Origin: a virus
Taxonomy: Duplodnaviria > Caudoviricetes
DNA: 64,000 nucleotides
Reading direction: 5' to 3' (one strand)
IMG/VR virus record: IMGVR_UViG_3300028591_000070
Coordinates: 256,001-320,000 of that record
Positions 2,613 through 59,416 of this stretch are shown here, piece by piece; the stretch's first letter is position 1, and the number at the start of each line of letters is the position of its first letter. The position numbers and the translations under genes were made by a program. Under the pieces are notes generated by a model, which had not been told where the DNA came from, did not search any database, and saw only the letters and a list, made by a program, of their open reading frames with translations.

Positions 2613-3508
2613 TGACATATAATCAAATTATAAAATTTCTTAAAAATACCCCAAGACCTAATGGCCGAAAGTATGATTTATATCGCTCTATAGCTGAAAA
2701 AACAAATCAAAATATTTCATATCTAAAAGCTGTAATTATTGATGATGGTTTTAGGTATGAACCTGATGAAGATGGTTATGTTATTGAGATGAATCCTAAG
2801 TTTTTAAATAAAACTACTTGGGTTGCTTATTTTGACCCAAACTCAGGTGAGTTTATAAATAGATGGGACCAATATAAACATGAAGATATGAGTGGTTTTG
2901 AAGCTCAATTAAATGGCTATAATGATGAGGGTGAGTGGATTTGTACTATAGTAGATACATCAGCACCTGATATGGATTCAGGTGGAGCTTATGATGCTTT
3001 ATTAGCTATTGTTGAACATAAAGATGAAATCTCAGGTGATGAGAATGATGAATACAAAACTTTGGAAATTGTAAATTCTCTTCAATTCAGAAAAGATATA
3101 CACAATGCTCTTGGAGAATGGGATGAAATATTTAATAGATATAGAGCATTTGAAATGGAATATGAAGTTGGCGAAAAATGTGTTGATGACTTGCACGTAG
3201 CTAAAAGATTTCATAACTATGAAACTGGTGAAGATGACTGGGACCATATCCTTGAAGATGACACAGAAAAACTTACTAAAATTATTAGTAATATTAAAAG
3301 CATATTTAAGAAGCATAATGTACCATATTATGGAACTGGTTATATTAGAGGTAGCCTAGGAGACGATCCTCGATATGCCGTTGCTGAACTCCATCCATAT
3401 TTTGCGGAACCAGGAGAAAATCACTATACTATCTTAGATGAAAAAATTGGATTAAAAGAGTCTAGTGACATTGTTAGTGAGTTTTTAAGATTGTGTGAGG
3501 GTAAATAA
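2612..3508 (+). CDS. acidic hypothetical protein
   Basis: 298 aa ORF, TAATG-coupled to upstream gene. Confidence 0.75.
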   Translation: MTYNQIIKFLKNTPRPNGRKYDLYRSIAEKTNQNISYLKAVIIDDGFRYEPDEDGYVIEMNPKFLNKTTWVAYFDPNSGEFINRWDQYKHEDMSGFEAQLNGYNDEGEWICTIVDTSAPDMDSGGAYDALLAIVEHKDEISGDENDEYKTLEIVNSLQFRKDIHNALGEWDEIFNRYRAFEMEYEVGEKCVDDLHVAKRFHNYETGEDDWDHILEDDTEKLTKIISNIKSIFKKHNVPYYGTGYIRGSLGDDPRYAVAELHPYFAEPGENHYTILDEKIGLKESSDIVSEFLRLCEGK

Positions 3509-3695: not shown

Positions 3696-4230
3696 ATCTG
3701 AACTATTTGAGTCCATTTTAGCAGAATCTTTACAAGAGGATTATGAACAAGCCTTAGGAGATTGGATCTGTGGATGGGACCTTAGATTTAAGAGTATTAA
3801 AAATAGAATTAAAAAATTTAAAAAACAATTTAAGGTACTTTATAGATATATTGCTCTACCATATGATTCTTATATTGAAGAGGGTCAGAATGTTTGGAAA
3901 ATGAAAGTTGGTGATATTTTTAATGCAACTCCTTGTTCAACTTCAATTATACCATTTTGCAGTAAATTAAATTATAAAAAATATGTTGATCGCATGTGCG
4001 TTTTTACAGGTAATTCTTCAGATGTTGACCTTTTAGAAATGATTTTTCATAATGCAGAAGGTTGGCAAATACCTCAGAGTGTTTATGATAAAAATAATTA
4101 TGAAGACTCAGATTATGCATGGCAAAAAGAAGTTATTTTAGATGGAAAATATCGAATAACTAAAATTATGAATATAAATGACCCACAAAGACCAACTTTA
4201 AAAAAGAAAGTTTTTTTAGAAAAATGTTAG
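3688..4230 (+). CDS. putative R-S-E clade ADP-ribosyltransferase
   Basis: VLYR(53), STS(84-86), QKE(146-148)VIL..YRITKI, in the order typical of VIP2/Alt-like ARTs. Confidence 0.55.
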   Translation: MNKSELFESILAESLQEDYEQALGDWICGWDLRFKSIKNRIKKFKKQFKVLYRYIALPYDSYIEEGQNVWKMKVGDIFNATPCSTSIIPFCSKLNYKKYVDRMCVFTGNSSDVDLLEMIFHNAEGWQIPQSVYDKNNYEDSDYAWQKEVILDGKYRITKIMNINDPQRPTLKKKVFLEKC

Positions 4231-4257
4231 TTTTAATAAAATAAGTAATTTCTATAT

Positions 4258-4281
4258 AAAGGCGCAAAAAGCGCCTTTTTT
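4258..4281 (+). terminator. intrinsic terminator
   Basis: AAAGGCGC-AAAAA-GCGCCTTTTTT. Confidence 0.8.
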
Positions 4282-4320
4282 GAATTTTTATTGAATTTGA
4301 TGTATAATCTATATAAGAGG
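4280..4320 (+). promoter_or_regulatory. class I (early, sigma70-like) promoter plus SD
   Basis: TTGAAT-17-TATAAT-CTATATAAGAGG. Confidence 0.8.
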
Positions 4321-4326
4321 TAAATT

Positions 4327-6180
4327 ATGTCAAGTCCAAGAGTTTTAGCAGGTAAGAAAAATTTCACAACAGTTAATGATGCATGGGAAGATTATTATTC
4401 TGAGAATAAGTTTGCTATTTCAGCAGATGTTCAGAAAGCTCTTAAGTATGTTCCTATTTATTATCAGAAGAAAAATCTTATGGCTATGGCTGCAGCTTAT
4501 TCTCTTTGGAATAGTGCTGAACAGCGATTTGAAATATTCTGTCCTAAGAATGCAGTTTTCCGTTCAACAAACCTTCATGAACTTGGACATATTTATTTCG
4601 GCCACTTAAAAAACTCTCGTAAGTATATTGCTATGGCTGAAAAAATCCTCGAACCTTATAGAAGTCAGATTGCAGATTTTCTTGATATAAGCCGCATGAA
4701 TGCAATCCATGATATTATCAATATTTGTATGGATTTTGAAATCAACTCAAAACTTTTTGTTACTAACAAAGAGCGAGAAGAATTGAATGCCTCAGTTCAA
4801 TTTTATTTAATGAGAAGACACGACACTAGAACTATTAGTTCTTTTATTAGTTCTTTTGATCCTGAAAAACTTTCTAAAGAAACTATAATTTTCTTCCCAG
4901 AAAACTTTGGTTTTCCTGGAAAAAAATCATTTCTTGAATATGTTCAAATGATGGTTGATTATTGTGTTCATCATAAAAAGCCAGAAATTCCACAGAATGG
5001 AACTGGTTCTTCTTATGAAGGTCAACTTTCTAATGAAACTAAAGGTGCAACTGCATTTTCTCTTCCTAGTAATAATACTGAAAATACTTCAAAAAATGAT
5101 GATGCTGAAGGTGACTCACCATTTAATGAAGAAGATGAAAATAATTCTGATGAAGAAAATAAACTTCCTTCATTTAATGAAAATAAATTGGAAGAAGAAA
5201 CTCAGGACAATTCTAACGAAGAAAACCCAGGTTCTGCTTCTTCTCCTAATGAAAATGATAAAGAAGAAGCTAATAGCAATAGTAGCAATAATGAAAAAGG
5301 TAAAGACTCAGTATCTTCAGATACTCCTCAAATTGAAGAAATAGATGATGATACTTTTGCTAAGCGTTTTAGAATTAATCGTGACACTAAAGAACAAAAA
5401 GATAACATTAAAGGAGAAGACTGCCGAGCTAATCGCAGAAATAGCGAACCTCTTTATGAACTTGAAGGTGAATCTCTTGACAATGAAATCTATAACTCTA
5501 AAACTTGGATGCTAGACCATGAAAGAGAAGAGGAAGAAATAAATAATCTTAAAGGAAAGGTTGACATAGCTTCTAATGCTTCTGAGATTAACAACTTTAT
5601 TCTTAAGAATGCTCTTCCTTCTATTGATATTTCATCTTATAATGATATTTTATACAACTATAATCGTGGTAAAACAACAGATGTATTTATCAATAAGGTA
5701 AGAACTCGTTCAACTTTCAGAAAGCCAAATGTTCATATTTTCACTGATGTTTCTGGCTCAATGGATGCTGAATATACTAAAAAGGTTGTAAAAGCTGTAA
5801 AAGCAATTAGCAGCCGTATTGATACTCGCTCATCAATTACATTTTATAATGAATGGGCCTTGAATACTGAAAAGTTTACAACTCTTAGTGATGAAGTTAT
5901 AAATAAATCATTTGTTGGTGGTGGCACTGAACTCGCTAGATCACTTAACAGAAATTATGTTAAAACTCAGGAAAATAACTCAGCTAATACTTTGGTTATT
6001 ATTTCAGATTTTTGTGATAATATCAGTGCAATTAAAAAATCATTTGATAATATCAAATCTACAATTCTTTGTATTGAAGTTGGAAACTCTAATAATGATG
6101 ATGTTGCTCAAGAATTCAAAGAAAATGAAATTAACAATGTAAAACACATAAAAATCGTAAATCGTCAATATGCTGCATAA
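4327..6180 (+). CDS. HExxH metallopeptidase-like + acidic linker + VWA domain protein (DUF2201-like)
   Basis: HELGH, NICMDFEIN, N/S/E-rich linker, MIDAS DVSGS..GGGT..ISDF; adjacent to MoxR ATPase. Confidence 0.85.
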   Translation: MSSPRVLAGKKNFTTVNDAWEDYYSENKFAISADVQKALKYVPIYYQKKNLMAMAAAYSLWNSAEQRFEIFCPKNAVFRSTNLHELGHIYFGHLKNSRKYIAMAEKILEPYRSQIADFLDISRMNAIHDIINICMDFEINSKLFVTNKEREELNASVQFYLMRRHDTRTISSFISSFDPEKLSKETIIFFPENFGFPGKKSFLEYVQMMVDYCVHHKKPEIPQNGTGSSYEGQLSNETKGATAFSLPSNNTENTSKNDDAEGDSPFNEEDENNSDEENKLPSFNENKLEEETQDNSNEENPGSASSPNENDKEEANSNSSNNEKGKDSVSSDTPQIEEIDDDTFAKRFRINRDTKEQKDNIKGEDCRANRRNSEPLYELEGESLDNEIYNSKTWMLDHEREEEEINNLKGKVDIASNASEINNFILKNALPSIDISSYNDILYNYNRGKTTDVFINKVRTRSTFRKPNVHIFTDVSGSMDAEYTKKVVKAVKAISSRIDTRSSITFYNEWALNTEKFTTLSDEVINKSFVGGGTELARSLNRNYVKTQENNSANTLVIISDFCDNISAIKKSFDNIKSTILCIEVGNSNNDDVAQEFKENEINNVKHIKIVNRQYAA

Positions 6181-53151: not shown

Positions 53152-54033
53152 TTACTCCTCATCGTCGTCAGCTTCTGCTTCAGCTTTTTCTTCTTCAGTT
53201 GCATCTTCTGCACCTGAGAAATCAAGCTCTGAGAACATACTTGCAAATGGATTTTCACCATCTTCACCACCGAAAATAGCAGCGAATGGATTTGCATCTG
53301 TCTTTCCACCAAACATTCCACCCATCATCTGCATCATAACCATCTGACCAAACATGTTTCCACCACCAAATGGACTGCAAGCATCTGCGACGTTTCCGCC
53401 ATTCATCATACCATTCATCATCTGGCTCATGAGCTGCATTTTAAACATCTGGCCAAACATGTTACCATTAGATGCCATACCTTTAAAGGGACACCAGATT
53501 TTAGCATAGAAGAATACTTTTCCCATAAGGATGTGACGTTCTGGAAGAACCTGCTTAAGTTCGTTGTCTTCATAGTCAAGAGCTGTAATAACTCCGTTAT
53601 CAACCTTGATTACAAAGCGTGGTACGCGGCGGTCACCTTTCTGCATAAGAATAATATCACCAACCTGAAGTGTATTTGTTGGAATAAGCCAGAACATGTT
53701 GAACATGTCAAAAGCGAAAGAACCAACATTTGTCAAGCGGTTTTTTTTAGCATCATAAGTTTTGTAACCACTTGGTGTCTTAATTGCAATTTTACCATTC
53801 ATACCGAGCTTGCACTTTCCTGCCTCGATAGGACCAAACATTCCCTTAAACATCTTACCCATGTCACCCATACCAAAATCGTTCATATCTTTATTCTCCT
53901 TGGGATTTTCTTCCCCATTATTATATTCAATTGAGTAGGAAGGTCTGCTGTACCTAGGTATCATAATCATTCCTTCCTCGCCATAATTCATTCTACTAAA
54001 ATCTGCAAACCTTGTCCAATTTGCTACACTCAT
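53152..54033 (-). CDS. Met/Gly-rich hypothetical protein (second, SD-supported in-frame start at 53886)
   Basis: FKGMFG..GKCKLGMNG.IA.K..YKTY; MMMQMMGG low-complexity C-terminal half; acidic tail. Confidence 0.75.
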   Translation of the reverse strand: MSVANWTRFADFSRMNYGEEGMIMIPRYSRPSYSIEYNNGEENPKENKDMNDFGMGDMGKMFKGMFGPIEAGKCKLGMNGKIAIKTPSGYKTYDAKKNRLTNVGSFAFDMFNMFWLIPTNTLQVGDIILMQKGDRRVPRFVIKVDNGVITALDYEDNELKQVLPERHILMGKVFFYAKIWCPFKGMASNGNMFGQMFKMQLMSQMMNGMMNGGNVADACSPFGGGNMFGQMVMMQMMGGMFGGKTDANPFAAIFGGEDGENPFASMFSELDFSGAEDATEEEKAEAEADDDEE

Positions 54034-54512
54034 AGTAATTTGGCCTTTTTCTTAAGATAAGCTCTTACTAGCATAAGAGTAAATCCAAGAAGGTTTTGTC
54101 CTTGCCACTTTGAAATATCCTGAACCCTTGGGTCATCTTCAGCCATATGAATAGCCCAAATGTTATCAGTAGGATTACATTCAACAAGAATATCATCACC
54201 TGTGTCAAGAAGTTGCTTTGCCAAATCTGGATTTTGTTCAAACTTAGCTTTAAGACCTTCATACACTACAATTTGACGAACACCATTCCAAACAGTGTCG
54301 TTATAATTGCGCACTTTTCTACCAAGACCTTTAATTTCGCTTGGAGAGGTTGAAGCCAGAATTTTCTGAGCAATTTCATCATCTCCAAAAGTCTTAGCTT
54401 TCTGATACATCATCCACTGTTCACTGTTGATAAACTTTACTCCATCAACAGTAAATTCGCTTTTGTACCAGTTACTTAAGAAACCTTTCAAAAAAGGATG
54501 GATTTTAGCCAT
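54030..54512 (-). CDS. NADAR (YbiA-like) family protein
   Basis: FLSNWY, SEQWMMYQKA, GRKV, KFEQN, LVE.NP.D.IW, GQNLLG. Confidence 0.95.
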   Translation of the reverse strand: MAKIHPFLKGFLSNWYKSEFTVDGVKFINSEQWMMYQKAKTFGDDEIAQKILASTSPSEIKGLGRKVRNYNDTVWNGVRQIVVYEGLKAKFEQNPDLAKQLLDTGDDILVECNPTDNIWAIHMAEDDPRVQDISKWQGQNLLGFTLMLVRAYLKKKAKLL

Positions 54513-54515
54513 ATA

Positions 54516-55325
54516 TTACAACTCCTTGAAATAATCTACCATTCCTGAGTCAGGATGTGGCATCTGAATAATTTCAATCTTAAACTTCATCTTGTTATAG
54601 AGTTTAACAATTCGATTAATTTCATCTACTGTAAAATCAACTTCATCCATTTCTCTACGAATAAAATGGTCCAATCTTTCATATGTGAAGTTTGGAATAT
54701 CCAACTGCTTAGAAAGATTCTGCTCATCTGTTGAGCCACACATTCCATCATCTGGAGCTTTCATAACCAAATCTTCTGGAGCACCCAAAGCCAAACCAAT
54801 CTGTCTTACTTCTGAAACAGTGTAGTCACAAATTGGACCATAACTTCCGGCGCTATCTCCATAGAATGTTGAATATCCAAGGACATCTTCGCTGCGGTTG
54901 CAAGTGTTCAAAACACGACCACCAAGAATTGCTGCAACTCCATAAAGAGTTGTCATTCGCAATCTCGCAGGAGTATTTGTAGAATACTGGCTTGGAATTT
55001 CATTGTTAAGAACTCCATTTGATACATCATCCATAAGGTTGACACAAATGGCTCCTGTAAGAGCTCTATAAGCATCACCAATATTTACAGTCAAATTCTT
55101 AATTCCAAGTAATTCACAAACTCTCTTTGAGTCGGCTATGTCCTTCTGTTCGCCATTAGGCATCATAACTCCAACAACATTTTCCTTACCATAAGCTTTT
55201 ACAGCAAGGTAAGCTACGACTGTTGAGTCTTTTCCACCTGAAATACCAATTACGGCCTTTCCAGATGGATTAGATGCTCTCAAGCCATTTACAATATTTT
55301 CAATAGCAAGATTAGCATCAAACAT
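54516..55325 (-). CDS. nadE: NH3-dependent NAD+ synthetase
   Basis: GISGGKDS, NTPARLRM, NRSE..GYST.YGD, KAP.DG..G.TDE. Confidence 0.93.
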   Translation of the reverse strand: MFDANLAIENIVNGLRASNPSGKAVIGISGGKDSTVVAYLAVKAYGKENVVGVMMPNGEQKDIADSKRVCELLGIKNLTVNIGDAYRALTGAICVNLMDDVSNGVLNNEIPSQYSTNTPARLRMTTLYGVAAILGGRVLNTCNRSEDVLGYSTFYGDSAGSYGPICDYTVSEVRQIGLALGAPEDLVMKAPDDGMCGSTDEQNLSKQLDIPNFTYERLDHFIRREMDEVDFTVDEINRIVKLYNKMKFKIEIIQMPHPDSGMVDYFKEL

Positions 55326-55327
55326 AA

Positions 55328-56800
55328 CTACTCAATCTCCTTAGCAAGGCGGGCACGAATATCCATCAAATTCTGGCGGTTGAAATAAACACCATTTACG
55401 AAAACAACCTGCATTTCATCTTTGTGAGCTGCAGCAAGTTTATCATATTCATGTTCAGTCAAACCATCTGTTGCAACATAGTCATTTCCAACTTTTTCAA
55501 CAAAAACCAAACCTTTGTGAGATTTCTTAAGTTTTGCTGTATCAGTTTTTGGATCTTTTACAACTTCAAGTTCGCGGCCGTCCATAAGCTGAATATATGT
55601 AGTTTTCTGTGCAAAACCGAAAGTATCACGAGTTGATACAATCATCTTGTCACCTTCAAAGAAAGCATGGAAACAGAAAGCACCTACACCAAAGAGACAG
55701 TTTGTTGCGGCAAACTTCATTTCTTCAAGCTTTTTCCAGATTTTTTCAACCTGTTTAAGAGTACATCCATCACCGAGGATCATTCCAACATGTGGATTTA
55801 ATACCTTGTAACCCTTCTTGTTTTCAGTACCACCAAATGTTTCCCAAAGAGACTGAACTGTCTGGATAACATTTTCATACTGGTCACCAGAGTCTGGACG
55901 AATAAGGATTTTACCTTCGTGAGCAAGAATTTCTTCTTTAATTTCAGGAAGAACATTCTTTACAATGTCCCAATAATCATAAGTATCGGCAACATAGCTG
56001 AAGTTTTTGTACTGCTTAAGAAGCTTGAGAATAAGCTCTTTTTCAGAAGTGCCAACAGCAACATTTGAACTTACTACAGAGTGTTCAATTGAAACTGCAC
56101 CAATTCCAAGGTGATTGTAAGAACAATCAGCATTGTAGAAATAATCAAGCCAAGAAATAGCAGGAACTGTTGAAGTCTTATTGAATGAAATCAACCAAGA
56201 AGCAGAAGTTTTACAAGCTTCTTCCATACAAGACATTCCGCGCATTCCAAAGTCTGAAGCAGCCATACGAGGGTCAGCACCATCTGTTGTTTTGTCATAC
56301 CACTTCTTTGCGATTTTGTAGTACATATAACCAGCAGTTGCGTCATTACAAGGCTTCCAAACTTCACCCTGCAACCAGCATTCTGTCCACTGAGCCAACC
56401 AAGCAAAATCAGGGTCTGTATTTTCTACAGAAGCGATAGGAACTCCCATATTTACAAGAGAACCTTCTGGAAGAGCTTTAATCTTAAGTGGAAGATAACC
56501 GAGACGATGCAGCTTTTCAATGTGGCTTGTTTCATAGTTTCCTGGGCCAAGCTGAAGATTCATCTTCTTTTCATAATCTGCGATTACTTCAGAAGTAGGC
56601 TTAGCAAACCAAGCATCTGCATTTTCTTTGAAATTTTTAATAAAGGCTTGAATACCGAAAACAACAACTTTCTGCTGTTTTTCGAACATAGATTTGCGGG
56701 GAACAAGATAACTAACGAGTTTAGTCATCCCTTTTGGATAAACGTCAACATGACAGTTTTTGTAGGTGTCAGCTACATCAGGCATCATAAAATGAAACAT
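55328..56800 (-). CDS. Nampt/Namat-family phosphoribosyl (or ADP-ribosyl) transferase, probably nicotinate-preferring
   Basis: DTYK..H, DFGMRG, SFNKTSTVPA, EHSV, DTYD, IRPDSGD, GDG, FGVG, RDT.GFA.K, KDPKTD..KKS.KG. Confidence 0.9.
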   Translation of the reverse strand: MFHFMMPDVADTYKNCHVDVYPKGMTKLVSYLVPRKSMFEKQQKVVVFGIQAFIKNFKENADAWFAKPTSEVIADYEKKMNLQLGPGNYETSHIEKLHRLGYLPLKIKALPEGSLVNMGVPIASVENTDPDFAWLAQWTECWLQGEVWKPCNDATAGYMYYKIAKKWYDKTTDGADPRMAASDFGMRGMSCMEEACKTSASWLISFNKTSTVPAISWLDYFYNADCSYNHLGIGAVSIEHSVVSSNVAVGTSEKELILKLLKQYKNFSYVADTYDYWDIVKNVLPEIKEEILAHEGKILIRPDSGDQYENVIQTVQSLWETFGGTENKKGYKVLNPHVGMILGDGCTLKQVEKIWKKLEEMKFAATNCLFGVGAFCFHAFFEGDKMIVSTRDTFGFAQKTTYIQLMDGRELEVVKDPKTDTAKLKKSHKGLVFVEKVGNDYVATDGLTEHEYDKLAAAHKDEMQVVFVNGVYFNRQNLMDIRARLAKEIE

Positions 56801-56807
56801 AATTTTT

Positions 56808-56902
56808 TATCTCCTATATAAGTCGAATATGTTTTTTGATAGTCACTAAGAACTGTGCCACCTAATTATGGTTATTCTTAGCAACATCTAAATTATATTA
56901 AC
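56808..56902 (-). promoter_or_regulatory. class II promoter plus structured 5' leader (candidate riboswitch-like motif), copy A
   Basis: GTTAATATAATT; stem GTTGCTAAGAAT/GTTCTTAGTGAC enclosing CCA-TAATTAGG-TGG; tail TTCGACTTATATAGGAGA. Confidence 0.6.
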
Positions 56903-57683
56903 AGACTTCTACGAAGTCGTTAGTACCACGGTAAATTGAATTTGTAGTAAATACTTTTGTAATTCCAGCTTCTTTAAGAGCATCAATATCAATTACATTT
57001 TCGCAGTGTGAAATGTAGAGATATACATCTTTTGCTCCAAGCTTTTTAAGCTCAATAGCTGAATATTTGAAAGTACCACCTTTTGAACAAATATCATCAA
57101 TGATGAGAATGTTCTTATCTTTGATAGCTTCTGGATTTCCCTTAATTTCAAGACCAAGGATTTTTCCGCTGCGCCAATCACGAGTTTTTTCACCAACTAC
57201 GATTTCATAATTTTCTTTAACTATATCCAAAGTAGAATAGCGTTTACAAGCACCAGCATCTGGGAACATAATTGTCTCAACATCAAGTGGAAGTTCTTTC
57301 AAGAAGTTTTCAATTGTCTGAAGTCCATTGTCCTGAATATTATCGATAAGAGCGCGAGAAACATCTGAGTGTGCATTATCAACAATAACAGCCTTAAAAT
57401 CCATTGCATTTAAAACTTTTGCAAAAGACTTAAGAGTAAATACTTCATCTGGATTTTTAACACGATCCATTCGTGCATTTGGAATATAAGGCATCTCCAA
57501 GAAAAGATTGCAGCCTTTATAAAAATCAGCAATACATTGAAGAGTGAAAAGTTCACTCATAGAGTCAAACAACCAAGTTACAGTTATCTGCTGATTATTT
57601 TTAATCTTAGGGTCAAGTCGAAAAAGTGGAGTTCCATCAGGAAAGTTTTCAACTTTAATTTTAATGTCATTTACTTTAATCAA
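56898..57683 (-). CDS. Prs-like pyrophosphokinase (candidate Adps, ADPR-PP synthetase)
   Basis: FPDG, MPYIPNARMDR, AHS, FPDAGA..RY, K.RD..SGKI, IIDDICSKGGTF; adjacent to Nampt-like gene. Confidence 0.92.
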   Translation of the reverse strand: MIKVNDIKIKVENFPDGTPLFRLDPKIKNNQQITVTWLFDSMSELFTLQCIADFYKGCNLFLEMPYIPNARMDRVKNPDEVFTLKSFAKVLNAMDFKAVIVDNAHSDVSRALIDNIQDNGLQTIENFLKELPLDVETIMFPDAGACKRYSTLDIVKENYEIVVGEKTRDWRSGKILGLEIKGNPEAIKDKNILIIDDICSKGGTFKYSAIELKKLGAKDVYLYISHCENVIDIDALKEAGITKVFTTNSIYRGTNDFVEVC

Positions 57684-57724
57684 AGGTTTTTCCTCATATC
57701 CGCCGGCAAAAGCCGGCTGGAATA

Positions 57725-57958
57725 TTAGCGACGCTTACGAGGAGTTCTTCCCCACATCTGCATCTGTTTTACAAAAAAATCATACAACTCGTTAAAGTCG
57801 TGATTACCTTCACTGGCAACAAGAGCGATATACTCTCGTGCGTCCGCTACATCTTCAGAGCACTTAGCTCGGCCGATGTAGTTTTTGATAATTCTTTTAG
57901 GATTATCAATAGCATCCTTCTTTGTGAAGGAGTCTACACCAAGGTTCTTTTTATCCAA
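57725..57958 (-). CDS. small hypothetical protein
   Basis: class I promoter (TTGTAA-17-TATAAT, 57979-58007) and GGAGG SD. Confidence 0.65.
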   Translation of the reverse strand: MDKKNLGVDSFTKKDAIDNPKRIIKNYIGRAKCSEDVADAREYIALVASEGNHDFNELYDFFVKQMQMWGRTPRKRR

Positions 57959-57996
57959 GACCTTTCCTCCATAAATAGATTATACCAAGAGTTGGA

Positions 57997-58545
57997 TTAT
58001 TTTACAAAAATTTGTTGTGATTTAAGTACATTCATTGCAGATTTTTGACCTTCTTCAGAGAGGTCAGCACAACAAGAGCTATCAACTATTATTGGCATTT
58101 CTGGAAAAAATGACTTAAGTAAAGTGGCGTTACTACAAACACAGATTGATGAAACTGTTCCAATAATTTCAATCTCTTCAGGGAAGTCACCAGGCTGATT
58201 ATTTTCATCATTGAAAAGTTCGTTAAATTTAGCTTTCCAGTCTTTATAGCCAAATGTAGGCTTGTCAACAATAAATGCATTTTTTGCAAATTCCTGAAGT
58301 TCTGGAACGATTTCCCAACCTTTTGTACCTTCAATGCAGTGTTCAACTGGAAGATTTTTTCCTTCCTGTGTTTCAAGATAATTTTTTTGATGTGTATCGC
58401 GAGTAAAAATAAGATATGTGTAGTCTTTAGCTTTAAGCTTTTCTACAATATTTGGAATGATTTTTTCTGCGGCAGGATTTGCCAAAGAACCAGTTACGAA
58501 GTCGTTTTGCATATCAACGACAATAAGAAGTTTGTTTTTCTTCAT
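57997..58545 (-). CDS. pncA: nicotinamidase (isochorismatase family cysteine hydrolase)
   Basis: VVDMQNDF, DTH, PVEHC..GT.G, DK.TFG, ICV..N; located in NAD cluster. Confidence 0.88.
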   Translation of the reverse strand: MKKNKLLIVVDMQNDFVTGSLANPAAEKIIPNIVEKLKAKDYTYLIFTRDTHQKNYLETQEGKNLPVEHCIEGTKGWEIVPELQEFAKNAFIVDKPTFGYKDWKAKFNELFNDENNQPGDFPEEIEIIGTVSSICVCSNATLLKSFFPEMPIIVDSSCCADLSEEGQKSAMNVLKSQQIFVK

Positions 58546-58553
58546 GTTTTCTT

Positions 58554-58657
58554 TTCTCCTATATAAATCGAAAATAGTTTAGTTTACTAAGAGAAGATCC
58601 GACCAACTTTTCTTATGGCTAATCTTCTCATTCAACTAGGTATATAATTATATTAAC
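58554..58657 (-). promoter_or_regulatory. class II promoter plus structured 5' leader (candidate riboswitch-like motif), copy B
   Basis: GTTAATATAATT; stem GAGAAGATT/GATCTTCTC enclosing GCCA-TAAGAAAAGT-TGGT; tail TTCGATTTATATAGGAGA. Confidence 0.6.
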
Positions 58658-58660
58658 ATA

Positions 58661-58702
58661 TATCCCTATAAAGAATATACATTAATATTTAAATTAGTTC
58701 AT
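58661..58702 (-). promoter_or_regulatory. class I promoter upstream of pncA
   Basis: ATGAAC-17-TATATT-CTTTATAGG. Confidence 0.6.
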
Positions 58703-59416
58703 TTGAAAATACTCATTAGCTTTCATACCAGGCCAATAAGCTCTTTCATCTTCTCTATCACTATTTTTAAGTTTTTCAAAATGTTCGTCCATTTTAGTAA
58801 AGACATTCTGAAGAATTTCTAATTTGTTAAACTTTGTAAGAGCATTAATAAATGTTTTATAGTATTCTTCATAGATGCGTTCATGCTGACCTTCACCATA
58901 ATCAAGGTCGATATAAGTATCTTTGAATAAATGATTTTCTACGACATAATGATATGTAGCTGCAACAAGATTTTTAATATCAATCCATTCATTTCTAGAT
59001 GAACCTACGAAAAGTTGATAAACTTCAGACTCTGGAGGATTTTCGAATTCTGAATATATTTCACTTATTTCAGCGTCTTCATCGTCAATGCTGTCATAAT
59101 ATAAATGACCTTCATAATCTGGAGCACCAACATATTTATGAGTACCTTTATGACCTATCCATTTAAGGCCAAAAGTATCAGTAAACTCATACTCATGTAA
59201 TCCAAACTGTTCAGCATCTCTTTCTAGAGAATAAAAATCTGGTGGATTAAGGTCATTGTTTTTATAAATACTATCAGACCTACGAGCTCTAGTGGCCATA
59301 TAAATTTTGTTCCATTCTGTTTGCTCTTCTACAGAACCAGTATATGGTCGCCATTCCCATTTTTCTGGAAAATACTTTACATAATTGTTATAATATCTTC
59401 TAACTTCTCTGCTCAT
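58694..59416 (-). CDS. hypothetical protein
   Basis: 240 aa ORF. Confidence 0.7.
   Translation of the reverse strand: MSREVRRYYNNYVKYFPEKWEWRPYTGSVEEQTEWNKIYMATRARRSDSIYKNNDLNPPDFYSLERDAEQFGLHEYEFTDTFGLKWIGHKGTHKYVGAPDYEGHLYYDSIDDEDAEISEIYSEFENPPESEVYQLFVGSSRNEWIDIKNLVAATYHYVVENHLFKDTYIDLDYGEGQHERIYEEYYKTFINALTKFNKLEILQNVFTKMDEHFEKLKNSDREDERAYWPGMKANEYFQMN

Follow-up and report, generated by a model that had tools for sequence, protein, structure and literature searches.

The question raised by this locus is why two genes of nicotinamide adenine dinucleotide (NAD) metabolism in one gut phage genome should be preceded by long leaders of similar design. The window analyzed here is the whole 64,000-nt stretch of DNA, bases 256001-320000 of a 385,934-bp virus record (IMG/VR IMGVR_UViG_3300028591_000070; G000, 31.7% G+C), and positions are those of the window unless marked G000. 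The leaders are located on the - strand, one upstream of the nicotinamidase-like gene pncA and the other upstream of a Nampt-like gene, a candidate Namat. The leader is real, under selection, and specific to phage NAD-reconstitution genes, and it is not in Rfam. Its tail, which the original prediction had taken as single-stranded, is itself, as read from the sequence, a weak mini-hairpin (P3) over the ribosome-binding site (RBS). Our preference, held with slightly less than even confidence, is for an mRNA leader in which P3 would be a translational operator for a putative factor, and the long hairpin ahead of it (P1/P2) a 5′ stabilizing or second binding hairpin.

Box, long hairpin, and near-identical tail are all present in both leaders, in agreement with the twin architecture that had been proposed. 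The box is the phage class II promoter box GTTAATATAAT. Exact copies of the form GTTAATATAATT, located at 58646..58657 (-) in the pncA leader (leader 1) and at 56891..56902 (-) in the Nampt/Namat leader (leader 2), are the only ones within the window, and both boxes are kept in relatives. The box GTTAATAT(A/T)AT recurs across the genome, and many copies have an ATG 3-6 nt downstream, which implies leaderless mRNAs and makes the NAD leaders of about 90 nt exceptional, as had been pointed out. The long hairpin of leader 1 occupies 58591..58629 (-), with P1 formed by 58621-58629/58591-58599 and P2 by CCA (58616-58618) and UGG (58603-58605), according to the minimum free energy (MFE) fold, covariation, and model matches. 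That of leader 2 occupies 56842..56885 (-), with P1 at 56874-56885/56842-56853 (three G.U pairs) and P2 formed by CCAU (56868-56871) and GUGG (56858-56861). The stems described earlier, GTTGCTAAGAAT/GTTCTTAGTGAC and GAGAAGATT/GATCTTCTC with the inner CCA..TGG hairpin, were reproduced by ViennaRNA (z -2.1 to -3.2). After a spacer of about 25-30 nt follows P3, which is UCGAUU[UAUAU]AGGAGA at 58555..58571 (-) in leader 1, where it is clade-invariant and its Shine-Dalgarno (SD) sequence AGGAG lies at 58556-58560, and UCGACU[UAUAU]AGGAGA at 56810..56826 (-) in leader 2, with the SD AGGAG at 56811-56815 (loops in brackets). The only two occurrences of the tail TTCGAYTTATATAGGAG in the whole 385,934-bp genome are the two within the window, in line with the earlier claim that the rest of the window lacks it.

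The original prediction had proposed that a covariance model be built from the copies. Model R1, derived from the pncA-type copies, recovered the Nampt copies, and model R2, derived from 11 copies, identified only the two NAD sites in the 386-kb genome, the next match having an E value of 1.8. The leader was found before pncA and/or the Nampt-like gene in 8 related uncultured jumbo-phage lineages. The contigs of these relatives keep the same gene order, and their Nampt homologs form a graded series, with identities to the window of 90% (L005, L006, and L007), 89% (L312), 88% (L008), 86% (L310), 77% (L011 and L012), and 75% (L009, Nampt leader only). Between leader-bearing genomes, the 4-fold degenerate sites of Nampt are only 37-60% identical; neutral sites are thus near saturation, and the conserved leader bases are under selection. 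The expected tie of the homologs to NAD genes was therefore observed, since the leader copies precede pncA or Nampt and are under purifying selection. The predicted lack of fit to the NAD+-I and NAD+-II families also held, as the Rfam search of the window returned nothing at gathering thresholds, and the leaders had no match even at E ≤ 10 (56500-59000 searched). In L005, L006, and L007, a 308-aa DUF7487/homing-endonuclease gene (phrog_3339) at 3999-5004 interrupts the Nampt-like gene behind its fourth codon. The leader, still intact, is followed there by an 11-codon remnant open reading frame (ORF) and the endonuclease, and the end of the insert supplies Nampt with a new RBS.

Written as RNA, the P3 tail is U-C-R-A-Y-U [UAUAU] A-G-G-A-G-A, that is, two standard pairs, tandem R.A/A.G, and two more pairs. 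The position Y is C or U, either of which pairs with G, the UAUAU loop is closed by U-A, and the 3′ arm is the SD. The RBS is preceded by UUCRAYUUAU, a 10-nt sequence that does not vary within the clade and that no other gene start in 386 kb carries. RNAfold formed P3 for the Nampt leader, both in the full leader and alone, and also formed it independently in five distant leaders.

Outside the clade, the UAUAU loop recurs directly before pncA or Nampt, with arms that differ and are complementary. Before Nampt, the hairpin is UUGCU[UAUAU]AGCAA in L009 and AAUCU[UAUAU]AGGUU in the 345-kb phage G154. Before pncA, it is UAACU[UAUAU]AGUUA in G154, AACU[UAUAU]AGUU in G155, AAGUU[UAUAU]AACUU in L404, and CUUCU[UAUAU]AGGAG in L353 and L359, two contigs from metagenome-assembled genomes (MAGs) of Treponema, while the loop or its length is altered in L352 (CACCU[UAUUU]AGGAG) and in L014 and L313 (CCUU[AUA]AAGG). 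In the distant phages and the Treponema-binned contigs, only this 15-17-nt hairpin over the SD or start codon persists; a 5′ hairpin is also present in the distant phages, and its sequence is unrelated to P1/P2.

These instances were aligned in 14 rows without gaps, anchored on the loop and not fitted to any structure. With this alignment, 73.8% of the cells in P3 were paired, compared with 32-55% when the arms were slid, and double changes were found in 5 of the 6 pairs. The covariation score was 0.366, compared with 0.07-0.19 in the slid alignments, and was reached by none of 500 shuffles. The loop is UAUAU in 11 of the 14 rows, and in all 14 instance types the 3′ arm is AGGAG(A) or ends at or beside the AUG. 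In G154, two of the four exact copies of the box are those of pncA and Nampt and the other two are off gene starts; copies with one mismatch are no commoner than in a reversed control, and hairpins with a UAUAU loop are not generally abundant (116 in the genome versus 184 in shuffles). Among IMG/VR pncA loci, only 2 of 80 bear the P3 box. P3 is, on the evidence of these alignments and counts, a deeply conserved, NAD-gene-specific element. Two further sites were seen at other genes. A weaker relative of P3, UUCCU[UUAU]AGGAG, covers the SD of a 116-aa gene two genes upstream of pncA in L012 (2204-2285; R2 score 26 bits, E 0.06). The exact box CTTATATAGGAG with a P3-like arm precedes a 94-aa ORF in L361 (Treponema MAG G001, contig C36, 37291); in three Treponema MAGs, no other gene outside NAD metabolism was found to carry the exact box.

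The long hairpin was also supported by the covariation check that had been suggested. In a model-guided alignment (A6, realigned on the basis of R1), 96.7% of the cells in P1/P2 were paired, compared with 27-58% in slid controls, and changes on both sides were found in 8 of the 12 pairs. RNAalifold found no structure on plain MAFFT alignments, in which the 3′ strands are misaligned, and this accounts for the null result. The lower part of P1 is wholly different between copies (GAGA, GGAU, GGGUU, GAAAA, GUUGCU, and GAGAUUAGUU), whereas conservation is seen at the top of P1 (AAGAWU/GWUCUU) and in P2, most members having a CYAY..GURG P2 on a P1 of 9-16 bp. G.U pairs in P1/P2 indicate that the sense-strand RNA is what folds. 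Either P1/P2 is an elaboration specific to this clade or it is a 5′ hairpin of a generic kind.

Several other roles of the leader were considered and rejected. P1/P2 is not an intrinsic terminator, since it is followed by UUAGUAAAC or UAUCAAAAAA with no U-tract, and the genuine terminators of the phage, which have GC stems and T-runs, are unlike it. Pairing of the P1 3′ strand with the SD was seen only in the pncA copy of the window. A pairing of the 5′ flank with the tail (P0) was not conserved in relatives. Short ATG frames that span P1/P2 in the window, as for a leader peptide, were likewise not conserved: the start of this upstream ORF is absent in the L005 Nampt-type leader, the L011 pncA leader, and L012, and the frame in the L312 pncA leader is shifted by +1 nt. 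The tail is not a class I promoter, as a -35 element is absent at 17 nt.

In the favored operator reading, each leader would be the 5′ untranslated region (UTR) of one NAD-reconstitution transcription unit, pncA-77aa-adps in the first case and namat-nadE-NADAR and so on in the second, with the transcription starts placed by the promoter boxes only provisionally. In the best explanation, the first module would be P3, a hairpin of 15-17 nt with an invariant U-A-closed UAUAU loop and the SD as its 3′ arm, which would abut the start codon in relatives that lack an SD. The energy of P3 is only -0.3 to -4 kcal/mol, so a bound factor would be needed to occlude the ribosome. A putative trans-acting factor may clamp P3 shut, probably as a repressor, and thereby set the amounts of PncA and Namat; it would most likely be a protein of phage or host origin or a product of the NAD operon itself. 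The second module would be P1/P2, a long irregular hairpin near the putative transcription start, which may protect the 5′ end and in this clade may also provide a second recognition site. P3 overlaps the SD or start codon and combines a conserved loop with a covarying stem, as operator hairpins do. A search of the genome for the RegA family gave no match, and the control of this search was equally silent. Taken together, the proposal of a ligand- or protein-responsive switch on NAD salvage stands in part: the leader is tied to NAD genes, covaries, and is absent from Rfam, and a translational operator, with the tail as the operator, fits it better than a riboswitch, which the tests made here did not support.

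Several results weigh against the operator. ATAGGAGA is a common form of the RBS in this phage, so the conservation of the tail is partly ordinary, and the NAD-specific part of the tail is UUCRAYUUAU. The clade P3 has four standard pairs around tandem G.A/A.G, with an energy no better than that of shuffles. With few instances, some of them related, the covariation statistics remain modest, and the measure of pairs with double changes beats only 37 of 500 shuffles. The pncA leader has about 12 unpaired nt ahead of P1, which fits poorly with a 5′ stabilizer. An alternative is a constitutive high-expression cassette, duplicated and unregulated, in which a 5′ stabilizing hairpin, an A-rich enhancer, and a strong RBS would be combined. 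The frequency of ATAGGAGA and the marginal stability of P3 are consistent with such a cassette, as is the RNAfold result for the pncA leader, where an alternative pairing replaced P3 and the SD was unpaired in the MFE fold. Two other genes with long leaders (G000 183481 and 164146, - strand) likewise open with a hairpin, a simple one of 8-9 bp immediately after the class II box. Against this, UUCRAYUUAU remained invariant and confined to the NAD gene starts despite near-saturated neutral divergence, the arms of P3 covary across lineages, which an unstructured enhancer would not need, and P2 and the top of P1 keep their sequence, in contrast to the drifting lower stem. We regard the cassette as unlikely.

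A ligand-sensing riboswitch, in which the internal loop of P1/P2 and the tail would bind NAD+, ADP-ribose (ADPR), nicotinamide, nicotinate, or ADPR-PP and shift the balance between P3 and the open form, is distinctly doubtful. It would suit two copies of a covarying structure on the genes of one pathway, some conserved unpaired bases, and an element that no known Rfam family explains. The weak hairpin holding the SD could act as an expression platform, and in pncA-type leaders the 5′ segment AGUUGAA can pair with the 5′ arm of P3 to give an alternative fold. However, this pairing loses one pair, uncompensated, in L005 and L008. The pseudoknot between the AUAA loop and the UUAU of the tail, which had been suggested for the window, can be drawn there and is disrupted by AUGA in L005, by ACAA in L312, and likewise in both copies with a swapped P2. 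In these two copies, L012 pncA (3196-3215) and L011 Nampt (4930-4950), a different hairpin, which has a bulged G and the loop GACAGAC or GACAAAC, stands in place of P2; GAYAGAC-loop hairpins were not enriched at NAD gene starts (about 440 loci), and two cultured nadV phages were without the loop. As for a binding pocket, the clade conserves the top of P1 and the tail, the internal-loop bases vary among relatives, and the large hairpin is unrelated in distant relatives, which retain P3 alone, too small for an aptamer, behind hairpins of other sequence. The spread is also narrow: R2 had no match in the three Treponema MAGs or in 151 genomes from the family of the Treponema-labelled MAGs with the closest bacterial Nampt, and exact tail scans of IMG/VR and JGI metagenomes returned chance matches and four near-identical strain copies (L198, L210, L272, and L273). 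A riboswitch is thus disfavored by how narrowly the leader is distributed, by the exchange of P2, by the lack of a conserved pseudoknot, and by the fact that distant relatives have lost P1/P2. It is correspondingly improbable that a metabolite-sensing RNA detects that NAD+ has been depleted, or that NADase defense has released ADPR or nicotinamide, and induces the NAD-reconstitution genes only under attack.

It is very unlikely that the conserved tail acts at the DNA level, with CTTATATAG as a promoter or operator for a NAD-dedicated transcription factor or a special RNA polymerase and with leaderless mRNAs in the distant phages. The TATA-like box does resemble the -10/discriminator regions of the phage itself, the ATG lies 4-5 nt after the loop in G154, G155, and L404, as in the leaderless genes of this phage, and symmetry of the arms would also be retained in a palindromic operator. 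However, a transcription start after the box would delete the conserved SD in the SD-type copies; the canonical spacing of SD and ATG means that the SD, and hence P3, must be transcribed. A conserved centre with variable arms is the opposite of a dimeric operator, the arms of G154 pncA and Nampt differ and are each self-paired, and the G.U pairs present in four P3 types would be mismatches in duplex DNA. The box is not enriched genome-wide. Known NAD regulators have the cores TGTTTA-N6-TAAACA (NadR), TGT-N4-ACA or ACA-N5-TGT (NiaR), and GT-N7-AC (NrtR) (PMC2330246, PMC2330245), and these operator cores are absent from the tail box/P3 region of both leaders. P3 holds its position with respect to the SD or AUG and not to the promoter, which lies 75-95 nt off at a varying distance. 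This fixed relation, the conserved centre, and the variable yet paired arms that include G.U pairs argue for an RNA hairpin and not for a DNA operator or promoter.

RNA processing, with P1/P2 as an RNase III-type or other endonuclease site that frees the namat or pncA message and the AU loop of P3 as an entry for cleavage or decay, is highly unlikely: in its lower and upper stems and the asymmetric internal loop between them, P1/P2 resembles phage T7 RNase III sites, leader 2 lies within a possible adps-namat read-through transcript, and the missing U-tract speaks against a terminator, but a conserved promoter box of its own stands upstream of each hairpin, the upper stem has no more than 3-5 bp, and such a role leaves the restriction to NAD genes unexplained.

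With regard to the inferred transcription starts, the P1 of the Nampt leader begins at about the expected +1. A class-I-type promoter is located upstream of leader 1, with a -35-like ATGAAC at 58697..58702 (-) (G000 314677(-)) that overlaps the stop codon of the 240-aa ORF, and a -10-like TATATT at 58674..58679 (-). Genome-wide, the class I promoter (TTGAAy-N17-TATATT-CTATAT, then A(+1) or AGAGGT-ATG) is more numerous than class II. In copies of both classes the ATG is often at the expected +1, and leaderless-type sites were seen in the window 40856 region and at G000 296855, 249893, 221134, 219259, 200992, 127082, and 199264 (-), so that a large share of the phage genes look leaderless. The twin leaders at G000 183481 and 164146 continue after their hairpin with the conserved UGUACUAAUUAAAWUAUAAAAYUUAAU, an SD, ORFs of about 50 aa, and terminators. 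UGUACUAAUUA stands directly upstream of the box at G000 117952(-). Class II boxes at G000 about 164-185 kb also stand ahead of apparent structured non-coding RNAs, and one candidate RNA at G000 184173(-), which begins GGGCUAUUCCCGGUUUCGACGG, has a tmRNA-like look.

The gene order on the - strand is the 240-aa ORF, leader 1, pncA, a 77-aa ORF, a Prs-like gene, leader 2, the Nampt-like gene, nadE, and NADAR. pncA (57997..58545, -) codes for a pncA-like nicotinamidase of 182 aa with an isochorismatase fold (Pfam PF00857, E 2.8e-23), and the gene for the 77-aa protein (57725-57958, -) lies between it and the Prs-like gene. The Prs-like phosphoribosyltransferase (56898..57683, -; Pfam PF00156; phrog_619, E 1.8e-63) is a candidate Adps of NARP1, and the stop codon of its gene falls within the promoter box of leader 2. 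It is followed by the Nampt-like gene for 490 aa (55328..56800, -; Pfam PF04095 and PF18127; phrog_448), nadE (54516-55325, -; Pfam PF02540), and the NADAR gene (54030-54512, -; Pfam PF08719). A Prs-like Adps beside a Nampt-like Namat is the signature of NARP1, a phage NAD+ reconstitution pathway (10.1101/2024.02.11.579819). The adjoining Prs-like and Nampt-like genes of the window would form a NARP1-like pair and are candidates for Adps and Namat. The nearest bacterial Nampt homologs, with 59-74% identity, are on Treponema MAG contigs. Megablast against cultured phages gave no match, and the best tblastn match to a cultured phage was only 45% identical, indicating that there is no cultured relative; a search of IMG/VR with the single Nampt protein also gave no match. 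Between the 77-aa and Prs-like genes there is a GC-rich hairpin at 57702-57717 (-) that lacks a clear U-tract and covaries in L012 and L312 (GCCGGC-UUUU-GCCGGC, GGAGGC-UUCG-GCCUCC, and GCUGGC-UUCG-GCCAGC), and it may be a processing or stability element within the pncA transcription unit. A stretch of about 30 nt, CAAGC-TATAT-GCTTG...ATAGGAGATTCTT, is common to both ends of the record (G000 103-133 and 385893-385922), which suggests a terminal repeat or a circularly permuted assembly.

NAD reconstitution by NARP1 and NARP2 is a recently found counter-defense of phages, and to our knowledge nothing is known about the control of these pathways. A conserved RNA element absent from Rfam is present here on both entry genes of an NAD-reconstitution cluster. 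Identifying what reads the UAUAU hairpin would tell whether phages titrate the rebuilding of NAD or sense its loss, and would also provide a compact regulatory part.

Among known RNA elements, the NAD+-I riboswitch (nadA motif) is described as tandem bulged stem-loops with a ACANCCCC bulge (PMC7297122), and occurs in Acidobacteria upstream of nadA, with the RBS in the second domain (PMC6859854, PMC7297122). The present leaders are similar in being bulged stem-loop leaders on NAD genes; unlike the motif in those descriptions, neither of them has CCCC or ACANCCCC, and neither matched Rfam. The NAD+-II riboswitch (pnuC motif; PMC7749635, PMC10085692) comprises P1 and P1a together with a pseudoknot in which the RBS region takes part (PMC7749635). 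Like it, the leader is small, belongs to the 5′ UTR of NAD-related genes, and has the RBS within its structure. It differs in having no Rfam match at E ≤ 10 and no conserved pseudoknot, in preceding pncA and Namat and not pnuC, in occurring in other hosts, and in its conserved core of about 17 nt. P1/P2 can also be compared with 5′-terminal stabilizer stem-loops such as that of the E. coli ompA leader. Consistent with such a role, the Nampt P1 starts near the putative +1 and other long leaders of the phage open with a hairpin; a generic stabilizer of this type would not call for the sequence-conserved top, the internal loop, and P2, or for a restriction to NAD genes. The closest parallels to P3 are phage translational operators, such as the coat protein operator of MS2 and Q-beta at the replicase start and the gene 43 operator of T4 and RB69. 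Like them, P3 is a small, weak hairpin with a conserved loop and a free stem over the SD or start of the gene that it would regulate. Unlike them, it has a UAUAU loop and a stem that are unrelated in sequence to theirs, its cognate protein is putative, and it is present on two genes of one pathway with a long 5′ hairpin ahead of it.

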